Source: Gammaproteobacteria bacterium (GTDB lineage: Bacteria > Pseudomonadota > Gammaproteobacteria > Eutrophobiales > Eutrophobiaceae). From it: a DNA stretch of 64,000 bases. The notes under the pieces were generated by a model, which was not told the DNA's origin, searched no databases, and was given only the letters and a program-made list of their open reading frames with translations. Where the stretch lies: assembly GCA_965222155.1 (NCBI GenBank), contig CBDCTH010000012.1, forward strand, positions 1,568,001 through 1,632,000, read 5' to 3'. Shown here piece after piece: positions 6,223-61,452 of the stretch. Within the stretch, counting starts at the first letter, position 1. Every line of letters begins with the position of its first letter. The position numbers and the translations under genes are program-made.

Positions 6223-6289
6223 CGCAGTAAGGAATTATTCCTGTCGCAGCTGGCGCCGGTCGTTTCCGGCACCGGTTCAATATTATTAA

Positions 6290-6464
6290 GGAAACTCTGA
6301 ACAAGTCCATTCCCGTATCAAGTACGGGACAGGCTCTGGACTTGTCAGAGCACGGAAAACAAAAATGCTATTTTTGTTTTCCTCACAAACTCAATGACTT
6401 ATTGTCATTGAGTTTGGCGATACATCCCTGTATCGCAGGAACCTCTGACTTAACCAGAGGTTCC
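6290..6464. mobile_element. MITE family A (IS5-like ends, TTAA target duplication), filled with nested palindromes
   Basis: TTAA|GGAAACTCTGA...CCAGAGGTTCC|TTAA; five to six internal hairpins. Confidence 0.75.
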
Positions 6465-6514
6465 TTAACTGAACCTGGTCCAGATTCAGCGTATTTCGAG
6501 AATATCAGTCGGGT

Positions 6515-6979
6515 TCAGCTTCCGTCCGAGCCTTGTTCTGCAGCAATGATCAGCGTAATGCGGGTATTGACGTCCGCGTGCAAATGCAGTTCTACCTCAT
6601 ATTCCCCCAAAGTCCTGAATGGTCCGTCCGGCAACCTGATTTCATGTTTCGTGACTTCCGAACCGGCTTCAGTAACCGCAGTTACGATATCGTTTACGCC
6701 TACCGAACCAAATAACCTGTCTTCAGAAACAGTCTTTCTATGCAGGGTAATGCTAAGGGCATTGAGCTTCTCTGCCCTGGTTTGTGCCGCGGCCAGAACC
6801 TCTTCCTGTGCTTTTTCCAGTTCGGCCCTTTCCGTTTCAAATTTTTCTACATTTCCGAGCGTAGCCGGTAGCGCCTTGCCGTTGGGGATTAGGAAATTCC
6901 TTCCATATCCCGGTTTGACGTGGACTTGTTGTCCCAATTCACCCAGTTTCGCGATCTTTTCCAGTAATATTACCTGCAT
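6515..6979 (-). CDS. rplI: 50S ribosomal protein L9
   Basis: MQVILLEK...VKPGYGRNFLIP, LFGSV. Confidence 0.98.
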   Translation of the reverse strand: MQVILLEKIAKLGELGQQVHVKPGYGRNFLIPNGKALPATLGNVEKFETERAELEKAQEEVLAAAQTRAEKLNALSITLHRKTVSEDRLFGSVGVNDIVTAVTEAGSEVTKHEIRLPDGPFRTLGEYEVELHLHADVNTRITLIIAAEQGSDGS

Positions 6980-7015
6980 TGGTCTACTCCAAAGTTACAA
7001 TTAATCATAGCATAC

Positions 7016-7924
7016 TCACATATTCTTATCCGTGACCTGCTCCGGTTCTTTTCCCCTGCAGGCATTCACAATCCCGACACAGCTTACAAATAACAGGATG
7101 ACATGAGGTAACAGAAAAAAAGTCCCATACATGCCTATCAGCCAGACCCTGGAAAATGCTCTGGTATGAAAAAACCCGTGTATGACTGACAACCCCTGAT
7201 ACAGGTACAGAATCAGCATCAATATCACCACGTCCCGGGTCAGTATCGATACATTATCAGGCGCAAGCAGTAATACGAACAGACCCGCCAGTGTCGGAAA
7301 TACCAGGACACGCGGCAATCTTAATGAATAAAATTCTTTCCTGAATCCACCGGGATTATACAATACCGACTGCCACCAACGCGCCAGCAGCAAGGTGGTA
7401 ATAAGGCTGACGACAAAACCGGTTGCGATAAATGCGGATAGCAGCGGGCTGATGAACTGGTATACCTGGTCAAGCTGTTGTGCGGTTTGATCAGTTGTCG
7501 CATATTCTTTCCAACTATCGAACCACTCCTGCCACCATCCCTGGATATCTTCGAGCTTAAAATAAATATAGGCAGTAAACAAACTGCCTGTAGCGCCGGC
7601 GCACAGAAGCATCAGGCCCTGAGATTGCGTTCTTCTTAATATCCCTGCACACAGGATCACAGGCAACCAGACAGAAACCATGAAGGCTATCGGTATTCCT
7701 GTCTGCACACTCAACGCTACTGCCATCAATGCAATCAGCAACAAGCTGCCGCAGGCAACCTGCAAGCTGACAAGGGGCCCTCTGCGCAAGGCCACCAGTC
7801 CCATTGGCGCGCCACTGATAAAATAGGACAAGGGTGAGATAAATACCGACAGTATGGTCAACGCACTGATAGTAAAAACCGCATGAATGCGTGTTTTTAA
7901 TAGATAATTACCAAGTGCTATCAT
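7016..7924 (-). CDS. DUF2232/YybS-like membrane protein
   Basis: Multi-TM, LARWWQSVLYNPGGF motif, conserved position between rpsR and rplI; start placed at MIALGNYL. Confidence 0.8.
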   Translation of the reverse strand: MIALGNYLLKTRIHAVFTISALTILSVFISPLSYFISGAPMGLVALRRGPLVSLQVACGSLLLIALMAVALSVQTGIPIAFMVSVWLPVILCAGILRRTQSQGLMLLCAGATGSLFTAYIYFKLEDIQGWWQEWFDSWKEYATTDQTAQQLDQVYQFISPLLSAFIATGFVVSLITTLLLARWWQSVLYNPGGFRKEFYSLRLPRVLVFPTLAGLFVLLLAPDNVSILTRDVVILMLILYLYQGLSVIHGFFHTRAFSRVWLIGMYGTFFLLPHVILLFVSCVGIVNACRGKEPEQVTDKNM

Positions 7925-7982
7925 AACGGGATTACCCAATAAACCAGGGATAAGGAGCGCACCCGGAAGCGATTTACCTGTC

Positions 7983-8145
7983 AACCCGCATTTCTCACCA
8001 GTTGATGCGCCCTCGCTTGTCTTTTGGCTGCCAGCGGGCACGTGCTCCCTCAACCATAGCTACGGCTATGCTCTCGGTCGCAGGCGCCCGCTGGCAGCCA
8101 AAATCCTGCGCTATCATCGCATCAACTGGTGAGAAATACGGGTTA
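7983..8145. mobile_element. MITE family B copy 1 (TA-target type)
   Basis: 27-bp terminal inverted repeats AACCCGCATTTCTCACCAGTTGATGCG / CGCATCAACTGGTGAGAAATACGGGTT; related copies at 41942, 44628 and 59396. Confidence 0.85.
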
Positions 8146-8175
8146 ACCACGTCCTTCCGGCGAACAGGTAAACTG

Positions 8176-8400
8176 CTAATGGGCCTCGCTGTAGGGCAGT
8201 AAAGACAGATATCTCGCGCGCTTGATCGCTGCAGCCAACTGACGCTGATACTTTGCTTTGGTGCCTGATATCCTGCTGGGCACAATTTTACCTGTTTCAG
8301 TAATATATGCTTTTAAGGTATTGATATCTTTATAATCAATTTCTTCAATGCCTTCTGCAGAAAACTTGCAGAAGCGCTTTCTTCTAAAATATCTCGCCAT
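8176..8400 (-). CDS. rpsR: 30S ribosomal protein S18
   Basis: IDYKD...[11 protein letters not shown]...[13 protein letters not shown]. Confidence 0.98.
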
Positions 8401-8415
8401 GGGTCTCCTGGGGTG

Positions 8416-8883
8416 TTATATGTTTTCTTCAACTTCCGGCTCCGCCGCAGCCTCGGCTGAAACGGATACCTGCTCAACTTCCTCATCTACGAGGGAATCC
8501 CTGTCTGCTTCCACAGCGGCAAGTGGATTCGTGCTGTCGGTAAATTCCCCCTCTTGTTCCAGCTCTGTGCTTTTCACCAAGGGTGATGGATCTGTGACGG
8601 CCCTCTCCTTCCGGAAAACAAGATCACGAATAACAGCGTCATTGAACCTGAATGCGTGATTCAACTGGTCCAGGGTGGTCTGGTCACACTCAATGTTCAT
8701 TAACACATAGTGAGCCTTGTGGATCTTGTTGATTGGATAAGCCAGTTGCCGGCGTCCCCAGTCTTCCAGTCGATGGATTACACCCTGGTTCGACTCGATG
8801 ATGGAATGGTACCGTTCAATCATGGCAGGAACCTGTTCGCTCTGGTCCGGATGGACCAGAAACACGATTTCATAATGTCTCAT
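8416..8883 (-). CDS. rpsF: 30S ribosomal protein S6 with long acidic tail
   Basis: [18 protein letters not shown]...[12 protein letters not shown]. Confidence 0.98.
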
Positions 8884-8983
8884 TGTTATATCCTCATGGA
8901 TTCAGCCTCCCGTCAATGCGGTGAGGCAAGGATTCTGGAAGGCGCAGTATAGTGTATAGACGTTGAGGTTGCAAATGGATGAT

Positions 8984-9919
8984 TCAACGAAAAGAATAAC
9001 CGAATTCCTGTTTGAATAAATCCGAGAATTCCTGCCCGGTAAACTGGTGATTCTGCGTGCCTGGTACTTCGATCTTGATTTTTCCCATAAGGGAGGCAAT
9101 CCTGCCGGTCGTATCCCAATCCATATCATGCATCAGTCCATATAACAAACCGGCCCGGTAAGCATCTCCGCAACCGGTGGGATCAACCAGGCAAGCGGCC
9201 TTTGCCGCCGGGATGTCAAAGCGTCCGCCACGGGTATGAATAAGTGAGCCGGACGCCCCGCGGGTAACAATCAGCGAATCCACCAGGTCCATGACACTGG
9301 CCATAGTCAATCCTGTCTTGTCTTCAACCAGTTGCCATTCATAATCATTGAAAACCAGCCAGGTCGCATACCCGAAACTGTTCAGCAATTCATCCCTGGA
9401 AAGCACCGTTACGTTCTGGCCGGGGTCAAAGATAAACGGGATATCCGCCTCGGCAAATTGCCGGGCGTGTTGCAACATCCCCTCCTTGCCGTCCGGCGCC
9501 ACTATACCGATACTGATTCCCTGGGCCATGGCTACCTTGTTTTCATGAGAATGAGCCATGGCGCCCACCTGAAATGACGTGATCTGGTTATCATCCAGGT
9601 CCGTGGTGATAAAACACTGAGCGGTATAGGTATCGTCAATAACGCGCAGGTGGCGCAGGTCGATGTCGTTCTTTTCCAGCCATTCCCTGTAGGCGGCAAA
9701 GTCAGTCCCTACCGTACCCATAGACAGACAGTCCGCGCCCAGCAACTTCATATTATAGATAATATTTCCGCCGCAACCGCCGAACTCGCGCTGCATGTCG
9801 GGCACCACGAAGCAAACATTCAGCATGTGTATTTTTTCCGGCAATATGTGTTCTTTAAAACGGCCCGGAAACACCATGATATGGTCATAGGCGAAGGAAC
9901 CGCAGATGAGTACAGTCAT
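8984..9919 (-). CDS. PfkB-family carbohydrate/nucleoside (adenosine-like) kinase
   Basis: GSFAYD, GGCGGN, DPTGCGDAY PfkB signature. Confidence 0.88.
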   Translation of the reverse strand: MTVLICGSFAYDHIMVFPGRFKEHILPEKIHMLNVCFVVPDMQREFGGCGGNIIYNMKLLGADCLSMGTVGTDFAAYREWLEKNDIDLRHLRVIDDTYTAQCFITTDLDDNQITSFQVGAMAHSHENKVAMAQGISIGIVAPDGKEGMLQHARQFAEADIPFIFDPGQNVTVLSRDELLNSFGYATWLVFNDYEWQLVEDKTGLTMASVMDLVDSLIVTRGASGSLIHTRGGRFDIPAAKAACLVDPTGCGDAYRAGLLYGLMHDMDWDTTGRIASLMGKIKIEVPGTQNHQFTGQEFSDLFKQEFGYSFR

Positions 9920-10007
9920 AAGGTTGGGATTTTATGATAACCGGGGTTAATCGAACATGTCTGATTTCAGTATAATAGACCTGCTTTACAACTCTATTAT
10001 ACAACCA

Positions 10008-10568
10008 ATGAAGAATAACAAGGTATGTGTATTTGCCGGTTCCAATAACGGCGCAGGCTCTGAATATGCAGACGCGGCTTCAGCTCTCGGCAGAGAATTG
10101 GCAAAACGCGGCCTGGGTCTTGTCTTTGGCGGCGGAGGGACCGGCCTGATGGGTGCGGCAGCAGATGCGGTTTTGCACCAGGGTGGTGAGGTGATCGGGG
10201 TCATCCCGACGTTTCTGGTAAATAAGGAGGGTAGAATAGTACATGATCAGGTAACCGAACTTCATGTGGTCGGTTCAATGCATGAACGAAAAGCGTTGAT
10301 GTTTGAGTTATCTGACTGCTTTATTGCACTCCCCGGCGGTCTTGGGACATTTGAAGAAATTCTCGAAGTGTTAACCTGGAGACAACTGGGTCTGCATGAC
10401 AAACCCTGCGCCGTATTAAACGTTGACGGTTATTTCGACCGACTTCTTGACTTTCTTGACCACGCCGTGGCAGAACGGTTTATCCAACCCGAGGAACGCA
10501 ACAGGTTGATCGCGGAAACAACCCCGGAATCCGTTCTGAATACGATGGAAAAACAGAATATTATCTAA
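10008..10568 (+). CDS. LOG-family nucleotide phosphoribohydrolase (TIGR00730)
   Basis: VCVFAGS, GLMG, MHERKA, PGGLGTFEE; could start upstream at 9957. Confidence 0.92.
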   Translation: MKNNKVCVFAGSNNGAGSEYADAASALGRELAKRGLGLVFGGGGTGLMGAAADAVLHQGGEVIGVIPTFLVNKEGRIVHDQVTELHVVGSMHERKALMFELSDCFIALPGGLGTFEEILEVLTWRQLGLHDKPCAVLNVDGYFDRLLDFLDHAVAERFIQPEERNRLIAETTPESVLNTMEKQNII

Positions 10569-10592
10569 AATAATATGATGTCATAGAATATT

Positions 10593-10798
10593 CAGGGCAA
10601 ACGCATACTTTTGGATTCTGTTGCAGAAGACAGGAAACCAACCGGAAAACGCCGCCCGTCATGCTGGCGAATGCCAGCATCCAGTCAAACAACAGCGCAT
10701 GATCATGGTGATGAAGGGTTATTCACTGGATTCTGGCTTGCGCCAGAATGACGGAATCGGGTAAAAACATCTGAATTCAAAAGTATGCGTTTGCCCTG
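10593..10798. mobile_element. MITE family C (ISAs1-like CAGGG ends, 10-bp target duplication)
   Basis: ATAGAATATT|CAGGGCAAACGCATACTTTT...AAAAGTATGCGTTTGCCCTG|ATAGAATATT. Confidence 0.9.
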
Positions 10799-10827
10799 AT
10801 AGAATATTATTAATAATATACTTTACT

Positions 10828-13707: not shown

Positions 13708-13860
13708 GTTAGCTGCTTTTGTTTGGCTGAATTTAATTCAACCTGCTAATATAAGGGATGATTCGCATGAGTCCAACCGGGTTTTATCCCCGGCTGAAAA
13801 AACAGCAGTACAAGCGTTGTTTTTTTTAACACTAAAATTAAATCGTAAAGGAGTGGAATA

Positions 13861-14328
13861 ATGGCCAGAGGAATTAATAAAGTCATCCTTATTGGAAACT
13901 TAGGAAACGATCCGGATGTAAGGTATACGTCCGGCGGGGCGCCCATCGCCAATGTCAGTGTGGCGACTTCTGAATCGTGGCGGGATAAGGAAACAGGTGA
14001 CCTGCAGGAGCGAACGGAATGGCATCGTGTCGTATTTTTCAGTCGGCTGGCGGAGATAGTGTCTGAATATTTGCGCAAAGGCTCAAAGATCTACGTAGAA
14101 GGACGGCTGCAAACGCGCAAATGGCAGGATCGCGATGGCAATGATCGGTATACGACTGAAGTCGTAGCCAATGAAATGCAAATGCTGGATAGCAAGGGTG
14201 CTTCGGGGGAATTCACCGGGACATCATCTGCACCGACGCGCAAACCGGCCGCTGCAAATGCTCCCGTGCAACAGGACAACAGTCCTGGTGATGGCGGTGA
14301 ATTTGTTGATGATGATATCCCGTTTTAA
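13861..14328 (+). CDS. ssb: Single-stranded DNA-binding protein
   Basis: [10 protein letters not shown]...DDDIPF tail; divergent from uvrA. Confidence 0.98.
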
Positions 14329-18300: not shown

Positions 18301-18307
18301 ACGGGCA

Positions 18308-20698: not shown

Positions 20699-20779
20699 AT
20701 TTGGGGTCAGAGTAAAAATACACTCAGCCTGGCAAGTGGTACTGGTTTATTGTTGAGTATTTTTACTCTGACCCCAAAT
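20699..20779. repeat. Perfect 23-bp inverted repeat, GGGGTCAG-type REP doublet; possible terminator
   Basis: ATTTGGGGTCAGAGTAAAAATAC...GTATTTTTACTCTGACCCCAAAT just downstream of the EF-G paralogue. Confidence 0.8.
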
Positions 20780-31760: not shown

Positions 31761-31847
31761 GCCGAGGTGGCGGAATTGGTAGACGCGCTAGCTTCAGGTG
31801 CTAGTGGGGGTAACCCCGTGAAGGTTCAAGTCCTTTCCTCGGCACCA
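31761..31847 (+). tRNA. tRNA-Leu(CAG)
   Basis: GCCGAGG acceptor stem, CTAGC-TTCAGGT-GCTAG anticodon arm, long variable arm, GTTCAAG T-loop, encoded CCA. Confidence 0.97.
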
Positions 31848-31906: not shown

Positions 31907-33559
31907 CCCCAAATCCCGCGTTAGGGATTTGAAACGGGCATTCAAGGCGCATTCTGTCTGTTTGTAGTGCCTTACTCAATAGCAATGAGCCATGGTTTAC
32001 CCTTGTATAGGGTAGGTTATCGCTCTCTCACGCCGGATTAGGACAATATCAGGCAGATTAACATGGCCAGGGCAATAAGACAGGCAGGGGTGACCCGCCC
32101 CCATCTGCCGGGGGTGACTGAGAACAGGGGGGGTTAGCAGGACTACGCTACGCCAGCCAGCGGCGGCGCCCGCGCCGGCGGCGCCAAGGCCGCCAGCAGG
32201 GTCTTCACCAAGCCGGCCTGTTCCGGTCGGAACTTCAAATACACCCGGCGGGCATGACACACGACTTTAGCAGCCATCGCATACACACGCCAGCGGAGGG
32301 TCGGCGCCCGGCAGGTATGCCACTGTGGCGGCAGCGAGTGACGCAACAGCACAAACAGGTTATACGCCGTCACACACAGGTGAAAGTACAGGGCATTGGC
32401 GTCAAACTGACCGCACGGCAAGCGCTCACCTCCGACGTCGCATTTCAACTCCTTGATGCGATTCTCCGAGTCCTCGCCGCGCGGGGTATACCCGTGCACT
32501 CTCTCACTGTCAGTCAATGCATCCCGATGGGTGGCCAGCGCCCGGTAGCTATACCCCCCGTCCGTCACGGCGGTGTCATCGTCAACGTCTTCCTCACCCC
32601 AATCCAGACACTGCTGCCCCGCTTTGCGCGTGCGCTGCACCACCACTGTGAAGGCCTTGTCATACCCCGTGATGACATGCACGCCCCGACACGTGGCCTG
32701 ACCGTCTACCGCCTCCCCGTCCCGCACCCACGGCTGCCAGACCGACTCTGGACGCTCCAGTATCCACGCCTTCAACTCAGCACTACGCTTCGCCCGTAAA
32801 TACTTCACTATCACCCCCTCAGGCAGCCCCGCCTCACAGGACGTGATAAAACCCATATTATCCGTCGCCGGCGCCACGTTCCCGTCCCGAAAGTCACAGC
32901 CCACCGCCTGACCCGTCTCCGCAAGATGCCCCAGCATCGGCATATAACCCTGACGCTTCAAGTACGTCCATTGCGCCGCCCGCTTCTCAGCAAACACCGG
33001 CGTCGCATCAATGTCCAAAGTCACCCAAAGGGGACAGATTTAAAATATGTCCCCGGTCGGGCGTTGCATCAATGTCCAAGGTCACCTGACGACACCCGCC
33101 GGTTCACCTCCACTAACGCCTTGATACCGACCTCGTCCTTGCCCAGGCGCCGCAACCCGTCCCCCAGCATGTCCGCACTCGGCAGCCGTCGCAACCCTAA
33201 CAACTTCCTCAATGCCTTATCCTGCCGGATAGGCCGCACATCCTCCAGACAACGCGCCCCGTCGTGCAACATCAGCATCCATAACGACACTACGTCCGAG
33301 GGCCGGTAACCCCGATTGCTGCCCGGCGCCGGAAAGTGTGCCGCTACCAGTGACGAAAACCCTATCCGCCGCAGTAACTCGGCCACACACACCAAGCCGC
33401 CGCGCCCGGTCAATAAATCATTGGTATTTGTGATTTTGTACAGTATGATTTGCATAAGCCTTGTCTGTTGCACCCATCGGGTGATAGTCGTTAATCACAC
33501 AACCTATTATACAGACAAGGCTTTTTTGATTCCTGCACTTTCTAATGCGGGATTAGGGG
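31907..33559 (-). mobile_element. IS1380-family insertion sequence, inactivated
   Basis: Imperfect TIRs CCCCAAATCCCGCGTTAG / CTAATGCGGGATTAGGGG, 4-bp ATAC duplication; transposase split into 33069-33473 and 32143-33024. Confidence 0.85.
32143..33473 (-). pseudogene. IS1380 DDE transposase, frameshifted
   Basis: LTGRGGL, TLDIDAT, RGEDSENRIKELK, NALYF motifs across two frames. Confidence 0.85.
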
Positions 33560-41709: not shown

Positions 41710-41941
41710 TTGCTTTACCTCATATCGTCATTTTTGATTAAACAAATCAAGCCTGTTCATAGCGCAGATTTTTAATGCCCGGGGATTCTATCATAATCCG
41801 AACCCGTTACCTTAATCTTCTTATCGTATTGAGCAGGGTAAGATCATACTTTTTGTCATAAGGAAGAGGTTTTTTATTCCAAGGGGTTATACATAAGCGG
41901 GGAACTCCTGGATTTTGTGCGGTGTGGGCGGACAGCGCCTA

Positions 41942-42190
41942 GCCCGGATATCTCACCAATTGATGCGATGATCGCACAGGATTTTGGCTGCCAGTGGGCG
42001 CCGGAGCCTGCCCCGTACTTGATACGGGGACCGAAAGCATAGCCGTAGCTATGGTTGAGGAAGCATGTGCCCACTGGCAGCCAAAAGACAAGCGAGACAA
42101 ATCGGCAGGACAGCCGATTTGCACGGCGACAGCCGCCCACAGGGTTGCGTCCAAGGACGGACACAATGAACGCATCAAGCGCAGTGTGTG
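41942..42190. mobile_element. MITE family B copy 2 (one end lost)
   Basis: TA|GCCCGGATATCTCACCAATTGATGCG; body is the reverse complement of the 7983 copy plus extra modules. Confidence 0.8.
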
Positions 42191-42281
42191 ATGATGCCAT
42201 GACCCGAATTAACCAGGTAACTATTTGATAGCACACAAGTTTCAGTCTACCTCCAAGCGGATTGATGAGATATGCGGGCTA

Positions 42282-42440
42282 GCGTTCGGCAGAACAGGCG
42301 GGGCGCTTACGGGCCAAGGGGTATCGCAGTCACATCCAGCGTAAGGGGACGCGCAACCGGCCGTTGACGGCCCGGGAGAAACAAGGCAAGCGCACCCGGG
42401 CGAAGGTGCGCGCTCGGGTTGAACATGTGTTTGGCGCGCA
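42282..42440 (+). pseudogene. IS5-family transposase C-terminal remnant
   Basis: Manual translation RSAEQAGRLRAKGYRSHIQRKGTRNRPLTAREKQGKRTRAKVRARVEHVFG. Confidence 0.8.
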
Positions 42441-43092: not shown

Positions 43093-43174
43093 GAAACCCG
43101 CATAGTATCAAGAACAGTACCATTCAACAAGCAGTTTGTTGACAACAGCAGTTTGTTGACAACTGTTGACAACA

Positions 43175-43354
43175 CAGCAGTTCCCGCTAACTCCGGGACC
43201 GAGGGCATCCTGCACTCGTGGAGGGCAAGACGCCCTCCCTCCCAGGGAAACATGCCCCGTTATGGTCAGAGTATGCCCGGGACTCCTGGGGGACAGATTT
43301 AAATCTGTCCCCCCCCTGTCTTCTGTATTCACCTCGAGTTAGCGGGAGCACCTG
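43175..43354. mobile_element. MITE family D copy 1 (CAG ends, 9-bp target duplication)
   Basis: TTGACAACA|CAGCAGTTCCCGCTAACTC...GAGTTAGCGGGAGCACCTG|TTGACAACA. Confidence 0.85.
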
Positions 43355-43477
43355 TTGACAACACATCCCCGCTGCTCCCCTATGAATTTATGCAGTCGGC
43401 GCTGGCGTGTACGTGCCCCCACAACCGTAGAGACTCATCACGTCTTCCAATACATCGCGAGACGCAATTGTGCGTCT

Positions 43478-44635
43478 CTACATTTCAGCAGCAGGGCTCC
43501 CCCACGTCCTGTCTCCTGTTCTCAGTTCTTCGTGAATGAGCAGTTTCAGTTCCGCCAGGCCGGCTCCGGTCCGGGCTGAAACCCAGGCGCGCGCACTGGC
43601 GCCGTTGATACTACTGCTCACAACCGTCTGCAGATCGCCATTTCCGGATTCAAACCCGGACTGGTCGATTTTATTAAAGACAAGGATCTGTGGAATAGAC
43701 ATGGCCCCCAACTCGTCTATCACCTTATTCACCTCCTCAATGCGCATCTGCTGGTCATCGTTGATGTCAACGATGTGCAATAATAAATTAGCGCTTTTAA
43801 TTTCATCCAGTGTGGCATGGAAAGACTCCACCAGGTCATGGGGGATATGCCGGATAAAACCTACCGTATCGCTGAGAAGTACCGATAGATCATCAGCCAG
43901 GCGGGCCTTCCTGATAGTCGGGTCCAGTGTGGCGAACAGCTTGTCGGCACAATAAACGTCGGCGCCGGTCAAGCGGTTAAAGAGCGTGGACTTGCCGGCG
44001 TTGGTATACCCTACCAGTGAAATGACAGCGGTATTATTGCGCCGGCGTAATCGTCTCCCTTGCTCTCTCCGGCTTTTCACTTTCTCAAGTCGCCCGCGGA
44101 TAGTTTTAATCCGCTTACCGATTAAACGTCTGTCAGTCTCCAACTGGGTTTCGCCGGGTCCCCTCAGGCCGATACCGCCTTTTTGTCTTTCCAGGTGCGA
44201 CCAACCGCGCACCAGCCGCGTAGACAAATGTCGCAACTGCGCCAGTTCGACCTGCAGCTTACCCTCGTAAGTTCTGGCCCGCTGGGAGAAAATATCGAGA
44301 ATCAATCCGACCCGATCAACAACCCGGCAATTTATTTTCTGCTCAAGATTGCGTTCCTGCGCCGGCGATAAACCATGATTGAAGATCACTACATCAGCAT
44401 CGTGTTCCAGGGCAGCTTGTCTGATCTCCTCCATCTTGCCTGAACCGATGAAAAACCTGGCATCGGGTTTTGCCCGGCTGCCGGTAATCGTACCTGAAGG
44501 GACCAGGCCGGAGGATTCGGTAAGTCGCACGAATTCGTGCAACTCTTCGTTGTAACGCGGGTTTTGAAAATTGATATGGACAAGGACGGCGCGTGGGTCG
44601 TTCGGGGAAACTGTGTTCAGGGTATTAACCCGCAT
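43478..44635 (-). CDS. hflX: Ribosome rescue GTPase HflX
   Basis: GPGETQLETDRR, GYTNAGKST, LFATLD, DTVG, NKID. Confidence 0.96.
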   Translation of the reverse strand: MRVNTLNTVSPNDPRAVLVHINFQNPRYNEELHEFVRLTESSGLVPSGTITGSRAKPDARFFIGSGKMEEIRQAALEHDADVVIFNHGLSPAQERNLEQKINCRVVDRVGLILDIFSQRARTYEGKLQVELAQLRHLSTRLVRGWSHLERQKGGIGLRGPGETQLETDRRLIGKRIKTIRGRLEKVKSRREQGRRLRRRNNTAVISLVGYTNAGKSTLFNRLTGADVYCADKLFATLDPTIRKARLADDLSVLLSDTVGFIRHIPHDLVESFHATLDEIKSANLLLHIVDINDDQQMRIEEVNKVIDELGAMSIPQILVFNKIDQSGFESGNGDLQTVVSSSINGASARAWVSARTGAGLAELKLLIHEELRTGDRTWGSPAAEM

Positions 44636-45034
44636 TTCTCACCAGTTCGCTTGTTGTCATCGGCTAGTTGTTTGCTGTCAATACGTTATAATAGTCTGCT
44701 CACTATATTAACACAACAGACTGTGCTTGATGCGCCCTCGCTTGTCTTTTAGATGCGCTCCATCCTTGGAGCGCCCCCTTCGGGCACTCTTCGAGTGTCC
44801 AAATCCATTCCAGATGGATTTGTGCCGCCAGCGGGCACGTGTTCATTGCGCCCCTCCCCCTGCTCAACTCCATACAGAGCTTGCCCCTGCGGTTGTAAGC
44901 AGGGGGGCAGGCTCTGGGCGCAACCCTGCGGGCGGCTGTCGCCGTGCAAATCGTCAGTCCTAGGGTGTGCGCCATGGAAGGCGCACATCTAAAATCCGGC
45001 GCGATCATCGCATCAACTGGTGAGAAATGCGGGT
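44628..45034. mobile_element. MITE family B copy 3 (long, about 407 bp)
   Basis: TA|ACCCGCATTTCTCACCAGTT...AACTGGTGAGAAATGCGGGT|TA. Confidence 0.88.
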
Positions 45035-45089
45035 TAATAATTATTCGCTCTCCACTGTGAGAAATAATGGCGATTCTGTCCAGGTTATT

Positions 45090-49168: not shown

Positions 49169-49345
49169 CAGCAAGTTCCCGCTAACTCCCTGGAGCGAGG
49201 GCATCCTGCCCTTGTGGAGGGCGAGACGCCCTCGCTCCCAAGGGAAAATGCCCGTGACTCCCGGGGGACAGATTTAAATCTGTCCCCTGTGTCTTCTAAT
49301 CCGGCAAAAATCACTGTATTGACCTCGATTTAGCGAGAGCACCTG
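49169..49345. mobile_element. MITE family D copy 2
   Basis: CAGCAAGTTCCCGCTAACTC...GATTTAGCGAGAGCACCTG; degenerate flanks ACACTATTTC / ACACTACTC. Confidence 0.8.
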
Positions 49346-55287: not shown

Positions 55288-55320
55288 CTGCCCATCAAGC
55301 GGACATCAGGTGGGGGACGG

Positions 55321-56580
55321 TTAATCGATTATCTTCTCGCCCGTGGCATACAACAACCATAGAATACCTCCCAGTACCTGCACGGCCGCGGCTATCATAA
55401 AGACGCCGGCATAACTGCCGGTCTGGTCCAGCAACCAACCTGCCAGGACAACGCCGACGACACCGGGAATGGTGCCAAAAGTATTGGAAATGCCCACCAG
55501 CACGTCGGCATAGCGCGGCGCGATATCAAGGAAGTTCGGCACATATCCCGAGAAGGTAAGTGCAATGCTGGCAAGCGCGCCACACATCACTGCCAAAGCG
55601 ATCAAGGGGGTGTGCGCATACGGCACAAGCAGGAAAAACACGGCCGAGCCGAACATGCCGCCGGTTTGCATGAGTTTGCGAACAAAGGTGATACTGTTGC
55701 CCCGCTTTACGAGTCTGTCCGCTGCCCAGCCTCCGACATTGGTCATCACAAACATGGTCAGCCATGGTGCAGCAGAATAGAGCCCGGCACTTGTGACGCT
55801 GAGCGATTGTATATCACGGAAATAGCTGGGTAGCCAGGCAAGCATCAGGTAGAGCCCCCAGTTGGTACAGAAATGATTAATGAATAGAACCAGGACGGCT
55901 CTGTGTGACAGTAATTTTTTCCAGGGTATGCCTGCGGTCTCCTGTTTGCTCTCGGATAAAGTGGCCAGCAACTTAAGTTCCGCTGCGGATATCCCGGGAT
56001 GCTCAGCAGGAGAATTGGTTGCTTTGAAATACCAGACGACAGCCCAGACCACACCAAGCAAGCCAAAAATATAAAAGGCATAGGGCCAGCCATACCGTGT
56101 CACTATCCAGCCTGTGGTGGTCAACGCAAACAAGGTGCCCAAAGGTATTCCGCTGGTTAATAATCCCATGGAACGTGAGCGCTCAGCCTCAGGAACCCAG
56201 TGTGAGAAGAGGTTATAAGAGGCCGGGAACATCGCCGCCTCGCCCAGCCCCATGGCGATGCGAACGGCGATCAATAAGGGCAGCGATATCAAGGCCGCGA
56301 CGGGGGTCAGTATGGTAAAGACGGACCAGGACAACACGGCAAAACCGAGAACAAGCTTGCCGCCAATTTTATTTGCCAGCCAGCCACTGGGCGCCTGCAG
56401 GATCATGTAACCGATAAAAAAGGAAGACAGCACCAACCCCTTGGTAGTGTCCGACCAGCCGAAGGCCTCCTGCATGGGAATGATGGCGACTGATATATTT
56501 ACCCGATCGATATAACAGATAAACGCGGCGCAGAAACAGAGAAAGACGATGTTATGACGCTTTTGCACTGTCAGCGGCAA
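55321..56580 (-). CDS. MFS transporter, anion:cation symporter (ACS) family
   Basis: CYIDRVNISVA, SSFFIGY, GISNTFGTIPG. Confidence 0.9.
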   Translation of the reverse strand: MPLTVQKRHNIVFLCFCAAFICYIDRVNISVAIIPMQEAFGWSDTTKGLVLSSFFIGYMILQAPSGWLANKIGGKLVLGFAVLSWSVFTILTPVAALISLPLLIAVRIAMGLGEAAMFPASYNLFSHWVPEAERSRSMGLLTSGIPLGTLFALTTTGWIVTRYGWPYAFYIFGLLGVVWAVVWYFKATNSPAEHPGISAAELKLLATLSESKQETAGIPWKKLLSHRAVLVLFINHFCTNWGLYLMLAWLPSYFRDIQSLSVTSAGLYSAAPWLTMFVMTNVGGWAADRLVKRGNSITFVRKLMQTGGMFGSAVFFLLVPYAHTPLIALAVMCGALASIALTFSGYVPNFLDIAPRYADVLVGISNTFGTIPGVVGVVLAGWLLDQTGSYAGVFMIAAAVQVLGGILWLLYATGEKIID

Positions 56581-57266
56581 AGTGGCACAGACTCCTGGGG
56601 CACGCCCTCGAGGGCTGCATCCAGGGCATGTCTCGCGGCGGACTTCGCGTTGATGTAGCCCGTAAGCAGTTCCAACCCGGCAGTCGCTGTTTCAATCCTG
56701 GTGAGTCGCAATTTGGGGTTATCAAAAAAGTTCTGGATGAACCCGGTTTGCGTAAGCCGCAGTTCGGCCAACTCGCCAGTACCCGGATTACGCTTCACCT
56801 CCTTGACCATGTACTCCCGCCGCTGCATAAAAATATATTCATCATTGACCACCAGGTAGCTCTTGAGCGTCACTGAGCGCCAGTCCGATTTCAGGGAATG
56901 TTCTTCATCCCAGCCACCATGGATCAACACGAGTCCGGCGCGGGCGCTGGATCCCGGGCGGTACATCTGGTTAAAGACATCTTCTATATCGCACCTGTGC
57001 TGCCGGGAGGTAAGCAGCGCATCGGTCAGACGCCTGAGACGATCCGTCTGCACTTGACGCTCCGTAGATGGAAAGAACATCAGTGCTATCACCTTTTCCT
57101 CCCCCGGACCGGTAACCGGTGTCGCCCAGAGTGTCATTTCCACTTTCTTGACAGTTCCGCGGTACTCACCTTCGATTCCGGTGAAATAGCTTTCATTATC
57201 AGTAGCCGGAACCCCGTTGCTGAAAATAAAGATGAATAATAAATATACGATCGGTTGTACTTTCAT
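56571..57266 (-). CDS. Hypothetical exported protein
   Basis: 231-aa ORF with signal-peptide-like start, overlaps the MFS start by 10 nt. Confidence 0.6.
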   Translation of the reverse strand: MKVQPIVYLLFIFIFSNGVPATDNESYFTGIEGEYRGTVKKVEMTLWATPVTGPGEEKVIALMFFPSTERQVQTDRLRRLTDALLTSRQHRCDIEDVFNQMYRPGSSARAGLVLIHGGWDEEHSLKSDWRSVTLKSYLVVNDEYIFMQRREYMVKEVKRNPGTGELAELRLTQTGFIQNFFDNPKLRLTRIETATAGLELLTGYINAKSAARHALDAALEGVPQESVPLCR

Positions 57267-57399
57267 ATTGGACCCGGTAACTATTTATAAGCAGGTTTAT
57301 GATAACAAACAATTGAGATATGACATGATTGTTTGAGACAGGTTCCGTTATCCTGCTTCGCACACAACCAGTATAGAAATAGCATTATATCTGTTATCG

Positions 57400-57438
57400 T
57401 TGACTCTCGTGCCTTACTTATATATAATTTTTGTAAGG
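57400..57438 (+). promoter_or_regulatory. Sigma70 promoter with operator-like inverted repeat for the AbrB-PIN TA pair
   Basis: TTGACT-17-TATAAT; CCTTAC...GTAAGG; AAGGAG RBS. Confidence 0.75.
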
Positions 57439-57447
57439 AGAACTATT

Positions 57448-57690
57448 ATGATAGTCAAAATTACATCTAAACGACAGGTCACATTCCCGGCTAGAGTGTT
57501 GGACGCGCTTGGAGTGGGTCCCGGTGATCAAATCGAGTTGAAAGAGGCGCCTGACGGGTTCATTCTGCGGCCCAGGCGCATCGACTATTCCAAACTGGGC
57601 TTTCTCAAAGACAAGATCGATCCCCGTATCGAACCGTTCGATATCGAGAAGTTCCGGAGTGAGCCTTATGGCCCGTCGCTACGGGATTGA
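57448..57690 (+). CDS. AbrB/MazE-type antitoxin
   Basis: KITSKRQVTFP...LGVGPGD. Confidence 0.85.
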   Translation: MIVKITSKRQVTFPARVLDALGVGPGDQIELKEAPDGFILRPRRIDYSKLGFLKDKIDPRIEPFDIEKFRSEPYGPSLRD

Positions 57691-58063
57691 CACATCCGTC
57701 CTCCTGCGACTGATTACCGCACAGCCTCCTTCTTCATATACGTACTGCGTCGAGCAACTTTCCTTGTTAATCGAGAATGGCGCAGAAGTATTTGCCTCGA
57801 ACCAGGTTATTGGGGAAGCATATATCGCCGCCCAACACCACTATAATGTATCTAAGTCCGATGCTTCTATGGCAATCTCAAGTGCGCTGAGTAGCGGTCT
57901 GGTAGCGCCGCTGAACGGGAGCACAATCATTGATGCTCTTGCGGCGCCCGGGAAACCAGGCCTGTTTGACCGCTTGATCGCCAACGACTACACGCGCGCT
58001 GGCCTGGAAGTCCTTACACTAGATCGTAAAATGGCGACCTTGCCTGACACACAGTACCTATAG
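57668..58063 (+). CDS. PIN-domain (VapC-like) toxin
   Basis: IDTSV, E, D.LI, TLD. Confidence 0.85.
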   Translation: MARRYGIDTSVLLRLITAQPPSSYTYCVEQLSLLIENGAEVFASNQVIGEAYIAAQHHYNVSKSDASMAISSALSSGLVAPLNGSTIIDALAAPGKPGLFDRLIANDYTRAGLEVLTLDRKMATLPDTQYL

Positions 58064-58197
58064 ACCAGGGATTACAGACTACAGGGAGGGTTTTGAGTTT
58101 GCTTTAATCTCTTCTGTCTGAAAATTCAATTATCCGCATTTTCATGGCAAGACGATCACCCACGAAACTTTCTGATATCTAATTAATCACAGTAATA

Positions 58198-58233
58198 TTG
58201 TGCTAATCGTAAACATGATTTACAATTAGCACA
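58198..58233 (+). promoter_or_regulatory. Probable leaderless promoter within a 15-bp inverted repeat
   Basis: TTGTGC-17-TACAAT-6 nt-ATG; TGTGCTAATCGTAAA / TTTACAATTAGCACA. Confidence 0.6.
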
Positions 58234-59396
58234 TGATAATTCCAAGAGAAATCACACAAACAGTCATCGACGATCTTGAACACTTTCCGGCCGTAGCCAT
58301 TCTCGGACCCAGGCAGGCAGGTAAAACAACGTTAGCAAAGTCAGTGACCGGAACGCGTCCTGATACCTTGTATCTCGATCTCGAACGCCACTCTCACCTG
58401 GCACAATTACAGGATGCCGAGGCGTTTCTCTCTCTGCATCAGGATAAACTGGTTTGTATCGACGAGGTACAATTAAGACCGGATCTGTTCCCGTTGTTGC
58501 GCGCGTTAATTGACGACCACCCGAAACCGGGACGATTTCTGATCCTGGGGTCATCATCTCCGGATTTACTGCGGCAATCATCCGAAACACTGGCAGGCAG
58601 GTTATCTTATGTGTACATCACGCCGTTCCACCAGCGCGAGCTGCTACGAGCGGAAGATAAATTGAAGGACTGGAGCGAGATGTTATGGCGTGGTGGCTTT
58701 CCGAAAAGTTATCTGGCAGACACTAATGCGCGCAGCTTCCGCTGGCGTGAGAACTATATACAAAGTTTCGTTGAGCGGGACCTGCGTCAGTTCGGCATTG
58801 AACTGAACCCTCAATACATGCGCAGACTCTGGTTGATGTGTTGCCACCTGCATGGGCAGACGGTCAACTACTCCGGACTGGGACAATCACTGGATGTAAC
58901 CCATCCCACCTTGAAACGCCATATCGATGTTTTTGAAGCCACCTTCATGATGCGCCGGCTTCCTCCTTTTGCAGTGAATACAAAAAAACGTCTGGTGAAA
59001 TCTCCCAAGCTATACATCCGGGACTCCGGACTGGTGATTTGTCTGCTCGACCTGGACAGCTTTGACAAATTGTATGGGCACCCTGCCTATGGCGCTTGCT
59101 GGGAAGGCTTTGCTGTGGAGAATATCCTGAGCATGTTAAAGCCGCGGGGAATATACGGCTTTTTCAGGACTCTCACCGGCCAAGAGATTGATCTTGTCAT
59201 AGAGCATCAAGGAAAGCGGCTTGGTTTTGAATTCAAAACATCATCAAGTCCACAACTCAACAGTGGCAACAAAGTTGCCGCCAACCTATTGAACCTGGAT
59301 AAACTCTTCGTAGTCGTTCCACAGGGAAATGCTTACCCCATCGCAGCTGACAAAGTCTGGGTGTGCCCGCTTGAACAACTTGAGCAATACCTCTAG
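58233..59396 (+). CDS. AAA_14 ATPase with DUF4143 and C-terminal PD-(D/E)xK-like motif
   Basis: GPRQAGKTT, IDEVQ, LGSS, ETLAGR, KSPKLY..DSG, EIDLV...FEFK. Confidence 0.9.
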   Translation: MIIPREITQTVIDDLEHFPAVAILGPRQAGKTTLAKSVTGTRPDTLYLDLERHSHLAQLQDAEAFLSLHQDKLVCIDEVQLRPDLFPLLRALIDDHPKPGRFLILGSSSPDLLRQSSETLAGRLSYVYITPFHQRELLRAEDKLKDWSEMLWRGGFPKSYLADTNARSFRWRENYIQSFVERDLRQFGIELNPQYMRRLWLMCCHLHGQTVNYSGLGQSLDVTHPTLKRHIDVFEATFMMRRLPPFAVNTKKRLVKSPKLYIRDSGLVICLLDLDSFDKLYGHPAYGACWEGFAVENILSMLKPRGIYGFFRTLTGQEIDLVIEHQGKRLGFEFKTSSSPQLNSGNKVAANLLNLDKLFVVVPQGNAYPIAADKVWVCPLEQLEQYL

Positions 59397-59670
59397 CCCG
59401 GATTTCTCACCAGGTCGCTTGTCGTCATCGGCTATTTGTTTGCTGTCAATACGTTATGACGACCTGCTCACTATATCGACATAACAGACTGCGCTTGATG
59501 CGCTGACAAATCGTCAGGATAGACGATTTGCACGGCGACAGCCGCCAGTAAGGTTGCGCCCAGAGCCTGCCCCCCTGCTTACAACCGCAGGGGCAAGCTC
59601 TGTATGGAGTTGAGCAGGGGGATGGGCGCAATGAGCGCGCCGGATTTTTGATGTGCGCCCTCCATTGACT
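59396..59670. mobile_element. MITE family B copy 4 (internal block inverted, right end lost)
   Basis: TA|GCCCGGATTTCTCACCAG; first about 105 bp match the 44628 copy. Confidence 0.8.
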
Positions 59671-59674
59671 CTCC

Positions 59675-59699
59675 GGGGACGGATTTCAAATCCGTCCCC
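59675..59699. repeat. GGGGAC-type palindrome (related copies at 33030, 34160, 43289, 49264)
   Basis: GGGGACGGATTTCAAATCCGTCCCC. Confidence 0.85.
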
Positions 59700-59881
59700 T
59701 TATGTACTGCGGGCGTCCAAATCTGCTCCGGGCAGATTTATTTTTTCGGTTTACCGGTTTTGCCATATGCAAAAAAGAACAGAATACGTATCATTTTGCA
59801 GTTCTATTTGGTAGACGACAGGCCTAACGGTTAAAATGCAGACTGTCTTCTATTGTGTTGTCTCCTATTATGATGATGTGA

Positions 59882-59917
59882 TTGACAAAGTAGCTATAAG
59901 TTGCTACTTTGTGATAC
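59882..59917 (+). promoter_or_regulatory. Probable leaderless promoter and palindromic operator of the Phd-VapC pair
   Basis: TTGACA-17-TACTTT-7 nt-ATG; ACAAAGTAGC / GCTACTTTGT. Confidence 0.7.
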
Positions 59918-60211
59918 ATGAGATCAGTCGGCATCAAAGTGTTAAACAATCGGTTGAGCGAATACGTGCGGCTGGCAGCTTCCGGCGAAACGGTACTGGT
60001 GACAGATCGTGACCGGGTGGTGGCAGAAATCAGTCCGCCACGGGAAACACGGAGTCCGATCCTGGCTGATGCCTTTCTGGCCGAGGCAGTACGTAGCGGC
60101 TGGTTGACGCCGCCAGCGCTGCCTGCCACAAGGGAGCCCCAGCCGGCAACGCCGGTTGCCCGTTTGACTGAGATTCTGGACGAACTGGACGCGGACAGAA
60201 GTGACCGGTGA
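59918..60211 (+). CDS. Phd/YefM-type antitoxin
   Basis: VGIKVLNNRLSEYV...GETVLVTDR..VVAEI. Confidence 0.85.
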   Translation: MRSVGIKVLNNRLSEYVRLAASGETVLVTDRDRVVAEISPPRETRSPILADAFLAEAVRSGWLTPPALPATREPQPATPVARLTEILDELDADRSDR

Positions 60212-60609
60212 TCTATCTTGATACGTCCGTTGCTCTTGCGTATCTCCTGGTCGAAGATCGCCGCCCACCTGACTCGCTCTGGCGAGAGACCCTGGTGTCC
60301 AGCCGCTTGCTGGAATACGAAGTATGGACTCGGCTGCATGGCCGTGGACTTGCCGAATCCCACGGAGAGGCCGCTCGCTACCTGATCGGACGGCTTGCGT
60401 TGTTGGAGCTTGCTCCTCCTGTGCTTGCGCGAGCGCTGGACGCCTTTCCTGGCCCTGTTTCGGTGCGTACGCTTGATGCACTACATCTGGCATCATGCGT
60501 GTACCTGCGTGAGCATAGTCAAGCCGTAACGCTCGCAAGTTATGACCGCAGAATGACCGATGTCGCCCGCGTCATGGATATACCTGTATTTGACCTGAAA
60601 GGTTCTTGA
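60208..60609 (+). CDS. VapC PIN toxin
   Basis: IYLDTS, E, RTLDALHLAS, YD. Confidence 0.9.
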   Translation: MIYLDTSVALAYLLVEDRRPPDSLWRETLVSSRLLEYEVWTRLHGRGLAESHGEAARYLIGRLALLELAPPVLARALDAFPGPVSVRTLDALHLASCVYLREHSQAVTLASYDRRMTDVARVMDIPVFDLKGS

Positions 60610-60639
60610 GAAATGGCGTATTTCTTGCCTATATGCCCG

Positions 60640-60960
60640 ATGACGGCAACAGTTGGGTCTGGACGAGTCACTGAGCCGGGTGCCTGGTATCTTCTTCCAG
60701 AACCGCTACAACTTCACCCAGGACCTGCGGGTTGCGATTCGGGGCTTCGGCGCGCAGGCCAATTTCGGCATCCGCGGCATCAAGGTATTCGTTGATGATC
60801 TGCCAGCGACACTGGCCGACGGTCAGAGCAGGGTTGACGACCTCGATATTGGTTTTGTGGGCCGGATCGAAGTCATCCGCGGGGGCCGTCTTCCGCACTG
60901 TTCGGCAGTTTATCCTGCGGCGTCATGAGCCTGTACACGGAGGACGGCGCCGACACTGAA
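60640..60960 (+). pseudogene. Remnant of a YncD/PqqU-like TonB-dependent receptor plug domain
   Basis: [24 protein letters not shown]...GIRG...DGQS...IEVIRG, then a frameshift; no barrel. Confidence 0.75.
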
Positions 60961-61178
60961 CATGTACGGGGGGTGTCGATGCACTTGAATTACTGACTTC
61001 AGGGCCAAAGACTGCCTGTTTGCAAGGTCTGAAGAAACCGGTCCACCGGCCACACATCAATGCCGTCCTCAGTGCAGAAGGCGCGGTCGCCGGCGCATCC
61101 GGCGCAGTCTGTCATGGCAGCAAACTAACGTAAATCCGGTAACTTATTGACAACAGGTAACTTTTCGTTGATGACAAG

Positions 61179-61370
61179 CTAATTGGTAATGGATATGCGG
61201 GTACTTAGAATATCGGCAACCGGCTGCCTTTTCTCATCCGTCAGTTGCAATTTGTTGATCAGCTTGTCTGTATGTTTTCCTGCACGTCTGCCGCCTGTAT
61301 GATGGTCGGCCAGGGCGATGGAGGTCAACAGCAGCGTGCTGAATGCAGCGATGTATAGTTTATTCATCAA
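61179..61370 (-). pseudogene. Truncated Spy/CpxP-like periplasmic protein
   Basis: Signal peptide, His/Gly-rich stretch, LQLTDEKR, then abrupt end. Confidence 0.4.
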
Positions 61371-61371
61371 A

Positions 61372-61452
61372 GGGGCATGTTTCCCAGGGAGGGCGTCTCG
61401 CCCTCCACGAGGGCAGGATGCCCTCGATCCCGGGAGTTAGCAGGAACTACTG
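61372..61452. mobile_element. MITE family D partial copy (inverted)
   Basis: Reverse complement reads CAGTAGTTCCTGCTAACTCCCGGGATCGAGGGCATCCTGCCCTC... Confidence 0.75.

Follow-up and report, generated by a model that had tools for sequence, protein, structure and literature searches.

How do miniature inverted-repeat transposable elements (MITEs) of several families come to have interiors that are mosaics of short palindromes, some of them common to more than one family? The question is raised by a window of 64,000 nt (the whole stretch analysed, G000:C12:1568001-1632000; assembly of 4.55 Mb in 12 contigs, estimated contamination 7.28%), a piece of core chromosome (radA, alr, dnaB, rplI, uvrA, EF-G, RNase R, purA, hisZ, hflXKC) in which a sequence-only reading had picked out nine loci as non-autonomous shells of four families exchanging palindromic modules. 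All nine proved to be dispersed repeats (20-288 high-scoring segment pairs per element in blastn searches against the 4.55-Mb genome) each belonging to one of four MITE families that have many copies and duplicate their target sites; these elements sit beside and inside core genes. In three of these families (hereafter the TTAA, TA and 9-bp families) shells that are otherwise collinear are found both filled and empty, and we lean towards the view that hairpins of separate repeat systems entered the shells, themselves derived from DDE-type elements, in several events and were copied along with them afterwards. The riding is the best-supported step, since a TA element with two modules (E4, holding the hairpin H1 and block d) has 100% and 99% identical copies at other loci, since a doublet of repetitive extragenic palindromes (REPs) has been multiplied together with the 206-bp MITE of ISAs1 type that encloses it (at least 26 near-identical copies), and since the palindrome P1 is uniform within the 9-bp shells (66 of 70 copies are of one variant) as compared to its mixed solo copies.

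Stretches built from 14-mers present at least five times number 2,746 and amount to ~317 kb (7% of the G000 genome). Along the elements the depth of blastn hits steps sharply (~230 for the palindrome at 43288-43313 vs ~100 for its flanks; 105 and 132 for the hairpins of the 10-bp element E3 vs 41-70 for its shell), the interior palindromes being more numerous genome-wide than the shells, and as reversed-motif controls gave 0-3 hits, chance can be excluded. MITE copies were counted genome-wide by pairing termini (TA, 9-bp and 10-bp families) or as aligned copies (TTAA family), and the counts derive from targeted patterns and alignments, with the exception of that of solo H1 copies, for which a module graph was used. 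When the modules were decomposed without supervision, union-find over atomic intervals ran 1428 segments together as a single family, and Louvain communities were usable but noisy; a family-level classifier will merge unrelated shells through their shared passengers, by which repeat annotation is confounded. No strand is assigned to the elements E1 to E9.

Four families of shells and their interiors

The TTAA family (15 aligned genome copies with the 4-bp duplications TTAA, TTAG, TATA or TTAT) is represented by E1 (6286-6468; terminal inverted repeats (TIRs) GGAAACTCTG.. and ..CAGAGGTTCC), which is flanked by TTAA at both ends (6286-6289 and 6465-6468), just as had been described for position 6290. 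Its hairpin H1 (6311-6337, minus strand) belongs to a set of CCCC..GGGG hairpins situated behind the tag GAGCCTG[CT]CCC (128 copies of the tag vs 3 of the reversed control), and it takes the place of the loop in a subterminal hairpin of the shell: 10 of the 15 copies read ..GTCCAT-CCA-GGAC.. at this site, and the other five hold the 27-nt H1 instead of the three loop bases. Of the copies with H1, the three full-length ones agree at 96-97% and have further substitutions in common; we read the filled form, from the alignment rather than from a tree, as a recent and derived one that would go back to a single event followed by transposition. The H1 sequence (GAGCCTGYCCCGTACTTGATACGGG) is found in five of the 15 aligned TTAA copies and in 15 of 83 TA copies, which confirms that the two families share this palindrome. 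No autonomous partner of the size of an insertion sequence (IS) was found for the TTAA family in G000. We also observed that the dnaB-rplI spacer (window 6225-6500), which holds the TTAA MITE in G000, holds a different one in G026, a relative ~95% identical to G000 (93-99% in the region of the window); the termini of the G026 element (L046, G026:C1:3033520-3033840) match an IS630-like element (CTAGTAC..), and the spacer has been struck independently in the two genomes.

The TA family (83 paired copies, 38-592 bp) is flanked by TA at both ends in 52 of the 83 copies, and 33 of these 52 pairs show identical 4-mers (CTAG 13, TTAA 11, TTAG 6, CTAA 2, ATAG 1). Given that TTAG and CTAA are non-palindromic, a 2-bp duplication next to a complementary terminal base is ruled out, and the duplication is one of 4 bp (YTAR); the elements noted at 7983, 41942, 44628 and 59396 are therefore real, but they do not have the 2-bp TA duplication first ascribed to them, and the last is one-ended. 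The termini of the family (GCCCGSATWTCTCAC..) match three IS copies (C12:1242097-1243864, C4:218571-220338 and C12:3474027-3475669; TIR match 19/19 and 16/16), all flanked by CTAG, and the transposase of the first of them (NF033539, 307.8 bits with a cut-off of 180; PF13701, 398.5 bits) assigns the partner to the IS1380 family, which is defined also by a 4-5-bp duplication. The reading frame of this partner is interrupted: there is an in-frame TAG near the 3' end of the transposase gene at L051 (G000:C12:1242050-1243910), and the C4 copy (99.5% identical in DNA) has one TAG inside its DDE_Tnp_1 scan match. A source among IS630/Tc1-mariner elements, as IS630 had been proposed to be, was discarded, for the four IS630-like (DDE_3) copies have unrelated termini (CTAGTACCC..) and the duplication is 4 bp.

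In structure, the TA family consists of a 241-bp backbone with optional blocks in fixed slots. Its members in the window, all IS1380-type MITEs, are E2 (7981-8146; 160-bp class, flanks TCAA/TTAA), E4 (41939-42282; 338-bp class, CTAG duplication, H1 at 42004-42030 and block d), E6 (44625-45037; 407-bp class, TTAA duplication, blocks c, A2, f, e, d, g and A1) and the truncated E8 (59394-59739; left terminus only, blocks c, d, e, i, P1-type and j). The copies of E4 elsewhere (100% identical at C12:651290-651591, 99% at C4:253239-253582) differ from it in flanks and duplications; E8, whose P1-type palindrome (59675-59699) is of the GGGGACGGATTT variant, has a complete two-ended relative at C12:215708-216029. 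Among the 83 copies H1 and block d are found in every combination (both 10, H1 only 5, d only 25, neither 43, by hand count from the table), and so the modules are not in fixed linkage, a case that the sequence-only reading had set against its own proposal. Furthermore, TA elements are nested in 9-bp elements (MITE within MITE, at C12:933349-933770 and C12:3282962-3283456), and many genomes of the genus contain pieces of the family in multiple copies. The left and right termini of single copies co-vary (e.g. ..ATATCTCACCAATGG.. with ..CCATTGGTGAGATAT..), a pattern that points to several source elements or else to correction of one arm by the other. A likeness of block c to the IS1380 subterminal region, judged by eye, was not recovered by blastn-short.

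The 9-bp family comprises 88 paired elements, 56 of them with at most one mismatch between the 9-bp flanks. Two of the three loci attributed to it at the outset stand as complete elements: E5 (43166-43363; noted at 43175), with a perfect TTGACAACA duplication, a GAGGGC hairpin arm and P1 (43289-43312), and E7 (49170-49345; noted at 49169), of the 176-bp class, with flanks that match at 7/9 positions by eye and P1 (49264-49287) at the commonest junction type. The third (noted at 61372) is but a half element, E9 (61369-61452), with a GAGGGC hairpin arm and one terminus. The GAGGGC..GCCCTC hairpins described for this family are real, 84 of the 129 lying in paired 9-bp elements and none in paired elements of other families. 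P1 is present in 65 of 78 oriented elements and missing from 13, including a 153-154-bp form collinear outside the P1 region. At least four types of left junction exist, P1 and short linkers following upon CCCCTTTA in one form, upon GTATGCCCGGG in another (that of E5, found in 5 of the 65 P1-bearing elements) and upon ATGCCCGTG in the commonest. The 189-bp form (CCCCTTTA junction) has P1 upstream of ATGGTCAGAG, the 180-bp form (GTATGCCCGGG junction) has it downstream, and because it lies on opposite sides of this segment, deletion cannot convert the one form into the other.

The partner of the 9-bp family is an IS of 1.6 kb with a 9-bp duplication, present in two copies (L018, G000:C12:1153956-1155571; L019, C12:1299212-1300833) that are both split into two open reading frames. 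Its termini and those of the MITEs were matched by pattern only, blastn yielding no match between MITE and partner IS (E 1e-3). The transposase has no match in Pfam or NCBIfam, and its 101 long relatives (523-811 aa) are nearly all unnamed, four of them carrying PF01609; judging from these, it looks like a DDE_Tnp_1-related element of a poorly annotated IS family. ISAs1, which had been suggested as the partner, pairs with the 10-bp family instead. We searched five P1-free relatives for 9-bp elements, in order to polarise the insertion of P1, and none was present. In G010 (L063, G010:C3:1054864-1057911), in which there is neither P1 nor any 9-bp MITE, the GGGATCGAGGGCATCCTGCCCTCG.. hairpin (the first of the 9-bp arm) stands in inverted arrays (1501-1704 and 2331-2620 of the locus) around a weak Y1_Tnp fragment, and the arm of the 9-bp shell may descend from an old RAYT-type REP.

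In the 10-bp family, 26 of the 32 paired copies measure exactly 206 bp and 27 have a perfect 10-bp duplication. Its member in the window, E3 (10583-10808; 206 bp, TIR CAGGGCAAACGCATACTTTTG), is flanked by ATAGAATATT, in agreement with the duplication reported at 10593, and encloses a convergent doublet of CGTC-1/NTS-like REPs (10657-10753; 10657-10684 on the plus and 10726-10753 on the minus strand). The partner transposase (PF13808, DDE_Tnp_1_assoc, 106 bits; PF01609, DDE_Tnp_1, 73.8 bits) belongs to ISAs1, a family defined also by CAGGG termini and an 8-10-bp duplication, and the TIR of the partner matches that of the MITE at 19/20 positions. The comparison with empty sites in a relative, which had been put forward as a check, showed that G026 lacks E3 and has a single copy of the target in its place, a clean empty site, and that E2 is likewise absent from the orthologous G026 site. 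The shells have been mobile in the recent past. At the E2 site the stretch lacking from G026 measures 199 nt and has AACCA on both sides; 37 nt of it (window 7947-7983) lie beyond the TIR-bounded element and are nearly unique in the G000 genome.

What the IS1380- and ISAs1-type MITEs share with their IS partners (blastn-short) is confined to termini of 16-20 nt. As only the termini match the partners (and, for the 9-bp family, nothing by blastn), the shells are not decay products of one autonomous element, which is the other case that had been named as contrary to a modular origin. The candidate explanation that the MITE interiors are deletion remnants of the IS partners was rejected on the same searches, with matches to termini only and, for the 9-bp family, none at E 1e-3.

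Hairpins outside the shells and their candidate enzymes

P1 (GGGGACNGATTT(N)AAATCNGTCCCC) has 245 genome copies with compensatory arm variants, of which 70 are placed in paired 9-bp elements, three in complete TA elements and 64 in free-standing positions with unique flanks; within the window GGGGAC..GTCCCC had been seen inside the 9-bp family, beside a TA copy and free-standing. While 66 of the 70 copies in 9-bp shells are of the GGGGACAGATTT variant, the 64 solo copies are mixed; the three complete TA elements and E8 have the GGGGACGGATTT variant, at two different positions in TA elements, and the TA and 9-bp shells have probably acquired P1 independently. The head of P1 (GGGGACAG) and those of three sister families (GGGGACAC.. 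or GGGGTCAG..) all fit the motif GGGGWSAS. The expectation of RAYT genes flanked by GGGGWC sequences was borne out by RAYT/TIRYT-like genes in G000 and in relatives. In G000 these are two intact Y1_Tnp genes, flanked by inverted GGGGACAC.. and GGGGTCAG.. repeats (~30-46 copies), with GGGGACACAATACTTAATT at the locus L001 and GGGGTCAGGTCGCACAATGCAC at L002; their proteins reach 72.7 and 70.7 bits against NF047646 (cut-off 80), pass Pfam Y1_Tnp and have the NHVH motif visible in their translations. Among the relatives, G022 has a 210-aa Y1 gene (L025 797-1429) with two P1-type palindromes directly after it and another one upstream, and in a second record of a metagenome-assembled genome (L058) a Y1 gene 87% identical to that of G022 has P1 on both sides. 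P1 and its kin may be substrates of Y1/HUH transposases (RAYT/TIRYT-like) that act on single-stranded hairpins.

The same class is represented in the window by an inverted pair of GGGGTCAGAGTAAAAAT (20699-20779, no strand assigned), a REPIN-like doublet with 158 genome copies, of which one copy is present/absent between G000 and G026; in G025 and G007 this repeat is found flanking Y1 genes. At one orthologous spacer three genomes differ: G000 has a P1, G026 a GGGGTCAG doublet and G024 a P1 split by other hairpins. Another doublet is present in G026 only. One P1 has been kept at an orthologous site in three species of 86-94% identity, and one stands directly 3' of a stop codon. Across the 23 genus genomes sampled for P1 and GIY-YIG genes, exact P1 copies range from 0 to 168 per genome, G000 being the highest (168). 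We additionally noted in G024 (L050, G024:C1:4041100-4058900; ~4860-4965 and 8300-8420) P1-type palindromes split centrally by hairpins of the CCCCTGCTTACAACC.. type, which resemble block e of the TA family, i.e. a hairpin within a hairpin.

The GTCAT..ATCCA pair that had caught attention in E3 as REP-like is indeed part of a large family (395 copies with compensatory stem changes, commonest form CGTC-ATTCCGGC-GAAT-GCCGGAAT-CCAG), 76 convergent pairs of which lie 35-44 nt apart. In terms of placement, 61 copies are in paired 10-bp elements, one is in a 9-bp element and 333 are outside paired elements. The nuclease linked to it is, however, a GIY-YIG enzyme (Ssn) and not, as had been surmised, one of HUH type: the partner of the NTS motif is the single-strand GIY-YIG nuclease SsnA (PMC11893778). 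Five of the 23 genus genomes have a strong PF01541 match (>55 bits) in a frame of 102-144 aa, and in G025 (L054) and G024 the small GIY-YIG gene is bracketed by CGTC REPs. For the GAGCCTG-tagged hairpins no partner gene was found.

An Rfam scan at the gathering threshold returned tRNA only (a tRNA gene lies at window 31761-31844), and no Rfam family matches the hairpins. Other multi-copy repeats of the window are situated at 31908-32023, 33135-33559 and 41840-41882, and elsewhere in the genome (G000:C12:2251602-2253455) there is a CRISPR-like array with 28 identical repeats and a period of ~67 bp.

How the hairpins may have entered the shells

Taken together, these observations bear out the description of the interiors as mosaics of short palindromes that in part cross family lines, with H1 in TTAA and TA shells and P1 in 9-bp and TA shells. 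Such sharing exists, but it is a minority pattern, each module being mainly tied to one shell. The idea of a two-tier mobilome holds insofar as there are shells with TIRs and target duplications on the one hand, and small palindromic units, several of them also found outside shells, on the other; the entry of the units into the shells is what we infer. On the reading that we favour, the interiors would have been assembled from REP-class hairpins of three kinds (GGGGWSAS, CGTC-1/NTS-like and GAGCCTG-tagged), which may have entered through separate small events (insertion, or replacement of a few bases), the entry point being a hairpin loop at the one site checked by folding (TTAA family). Each time that a shell was moved by its DDE transposase, the passenger would be copied too. 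The hairpins' own nucleases would be what placed them in the shells and, for that matter, what moves these repeats at all.

Several observations weigh against this reading of hairpins as passengers. No hairpin insertion was caught between orthologous copies of a shell, and the direction of change is read only from the structure of the subfamilies. Clean junctions are not seen, for H1 has taken the place of 3 nt in the TTAA shell and of 5 nt in the TA shell, and adjacent deletions are a further difference among the P1 forms of the 9-bp family; because the junctions replace 3-5 nt or show deletions, recombination or template switching fits them as well as transposition does. H1 has no free-standing copy (0/39 in the module graph), so that its independent mobility is unsupported. 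In the 10-bp family the REP doublet is found in every element, with no REP-free shell among them, and the family may have originated around the doublet. As for the enzymes, G000 yielded neither a P1-type Y1 gene (best match 45% identity) nor any P1 within a few kb of a Y1 gene or fragment, and no small GIY-YIG gene, its only PF01541 match lying in a 616-aa frame that we take to be UvrC. Within the genus a Y1 gene is present in 11 of 14 P1-rich vs 4 of 9 P1-poor genomes, and with genomes that are kin to one another this makes for a weak, suggestive link between Y1 and P1 abundance. A preference of solo P1 for the centres of pre-existing palindromes was looked for and rejected (5/64 with at least three complementary flanking pairs vs 3.3 per 64 in shuffled pairings). 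Finally, duplicated loci on small contigs inflate the copy counts slightly: element pairs of C7, C8 and C10 with identical flanks (C10:53389/C7:29700 and C10:95474/C8:9987) are duplicated parts of the assembly.

The first alternative to consider, unlikely in our judgement, is that recombination alone (gene conversion, template switching at stalled forks, illegitimate recombination) produced the mosaics, with no hairpin mobile by itself. It directly explains why H1 and block d occur in all four combinations, and it accommodates 3-5-nt replacements in place of clean insertions, an H1 that has no solo copy, TA termini whose co-variation suggests copy correction and a genome devoid of cognate nucleases for P1 or the CGTC REP. 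Conversion, on the other hand, needs homology as a guide, and the H1-bearing TTAA and TA shells have none in their flanks; nor does recombination readily account for 64 P1 copies in unique DNA with no flank in common, for P1 numbers that vary between 0 and 168 within one genus, or for GGGGWSAS elements that are present/absent at orthologous sites of close relatives.

A history of birth and decay, in which IS termini once enclosed a REP-filled spacer and the present variety consists of internal deletions that hairpins provoked in long masters, we regard as distinctly improbable. It can call upon the 10-bp family (a REP doublet in all elements, 26 of 32 of the same length), upon MITE interiors unrelated to the IS partners, the resemblance of the 9-bp GAGGGC arm to the repeat that flanks the Y1 fragment in G010, and long TA forms (e.g. 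the 592-bp copy) that hold most of the blocks. For the 9-bp shell the evidence is divided, since adjacent deletions separate some P1 forms, whereas the positions of P1 on either side of ATGGTCAGAG (upstream at 189 bp, downstream at 180 bp) are not interconvertible by deletion. Decay from masters is further at odds with the presence of H1 in two unrelated shells, with P1 variants that differ between TA and 9-bp shells, and with the tight subgroup (96-97% identity) formed by the H1-bearing TTAA copies.

That the hairpins are kept for a host function (as terminators, mRNA stabilisers or protein-binding sites), the MITEs being a mere vehicle, is compatible with the other explanations and as an account of its own very improbable: compensatory stem changes in P1 and CGTC REPs are likewise expected of nuclease substrates, and the P1 conserved across three species, the P1 directly after a stop codon and the argument of PMC3733652 that many REPs act as RNA elements are set against hairpins without an Rfam match and copy numbers of 0-168 among close relatives.

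Returning to hairpins as passengers of DDE-type MITEs, we put forward, as a tentative and rather doubtful extension, that hairpins dependent on single-strand nucleases (Y1/HUH and GIY-YIG Ssn) may persist and even expand after the loss of the enzyme gene by lodging in such MITEs, where an unrelated transposase would copy them, and that G000 could be such a case, because it has 168 exact P1 and 395 CGTC REPs and yet no P1-type Y1 or ssn gene, and because at least 70 of its 245 P1 (66 of one variant) are in one MITE family. If true, this would amount to cross-class hitch-hiking between mechanistically unrelated mobile systems, and would be one way in which MITE interiors could be built up out of REPs. 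The cognate genes in relatives and the empty sites make two old questions testable, namely by what means a REP family spreads and holds out in the absence of its nuclease, and where the non-IS interiors of bacterial MITEs originate. The hosts are uncultured, which limits direct experiments.

Comparison with known repeat systems

Bacterial interspersed mosaic elements (BIMEs) and the intergenic mosaic elements of Neisseria are spacer arrays of palindromic units and linkers, with no TIRs or target-site duplications. Those of E. coli and Neisseria are named as mosaics in PMC3733652 and PMC11893778. The elements described here are like them in consisting of intergenic palindromic units and linkers of variable order and orientation, and unlike them in that the mosaics stand between TIRs with duplications and move as a unit (free clusters fall outside this comparison). 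For Nostoc, Elhai et al. in 2008 reportedly described very small hairpin repeats that had gone into other repeats as well as into one another. To our knowledge, neither DDE partners nor linked nuclease genes are on record for those nested repeats, the host of which belongs to a different phylum from G000.

Closer in enzymology are the REPtrons and TIRtrons, in which Y1/HUH genes of RAYT or TIRYT type are flanked by REPs or TIRs sharing GGGGWSAS (Di Nocera, De Gregorio and Rocco 2013, PMC3733652). The Y1 genes of G000 lie between inverted repeats as in a TIRtron, P1 (with its self-complementary GGGGACAG..) flanks a Y1 gene in two relatives, and the families occur as singles, dimers and clusters; the differences are that P1, the most abundant here (245), has no cognate gene in G000, and that, unlike in the systems covered by the available part of PMC3733652, at least 70 of the 245 copies are inside a DDE-type MITE. 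Likewise, the CGTC REPs agree with the CGTC-1 family as characterised there (CGTC head, 8-bp stem starting with AT, 4-nt loop and CCA tail, mostly in head-to-head dimers; Neisseria dRS3 is a member) and with the NTS of PMC11893778 in head, stem, loop, CCA(G) tail and frequent convergent pairs, and in G025 and G024 a small GIY-YIG gene stands between repeats as in NTS-Ssn. They depart from NTS-Ssn in G000, where 395 copies exist without a small GIY-YIG gene and one doublet has been fixed and copied in an ISAs1-type MITE.

The nearest parallel to that doublet consists of the CGTC-1 dimers in 41-bp palindromes of Halothiobacillus neapolitanus and the GTAG-15 dimers of Anabaena variabilis, the outer palindromes of which are not identified as transposons in the available part of PMC3733652 (2013). 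The 10-bp family similarly has its REP doublet between long inverted termini, with no REP-free shell, but the outer palindrome is here a MITE (10-bp duplication, ISAs1 partner, empty site), and the other shells occur both with and without hairpins. With ordinary IS-derived MITEs (Nezha, NEMIS and ERIC are listed in PMC3733652) our elements have in common TIRs, target duplications, the lack of coding capacity, a high copy number and IS partners with matching ends, whereas their interiors are not IS-derived and consist of modules, passengers that stem from other repeat systems among them. Nuclease-linked hairpins as variable passengers of DDE-type MITEs of several IS families, amplified without their own nucleases, were not found in the surveyed literature, as represented by titles and the beginnings of abstracts. 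Every component is known in kind and the combination is unusual: REPs and MITEs, usually treated as separate repeat classes with separate enzymes, are here physically nested within one genus.

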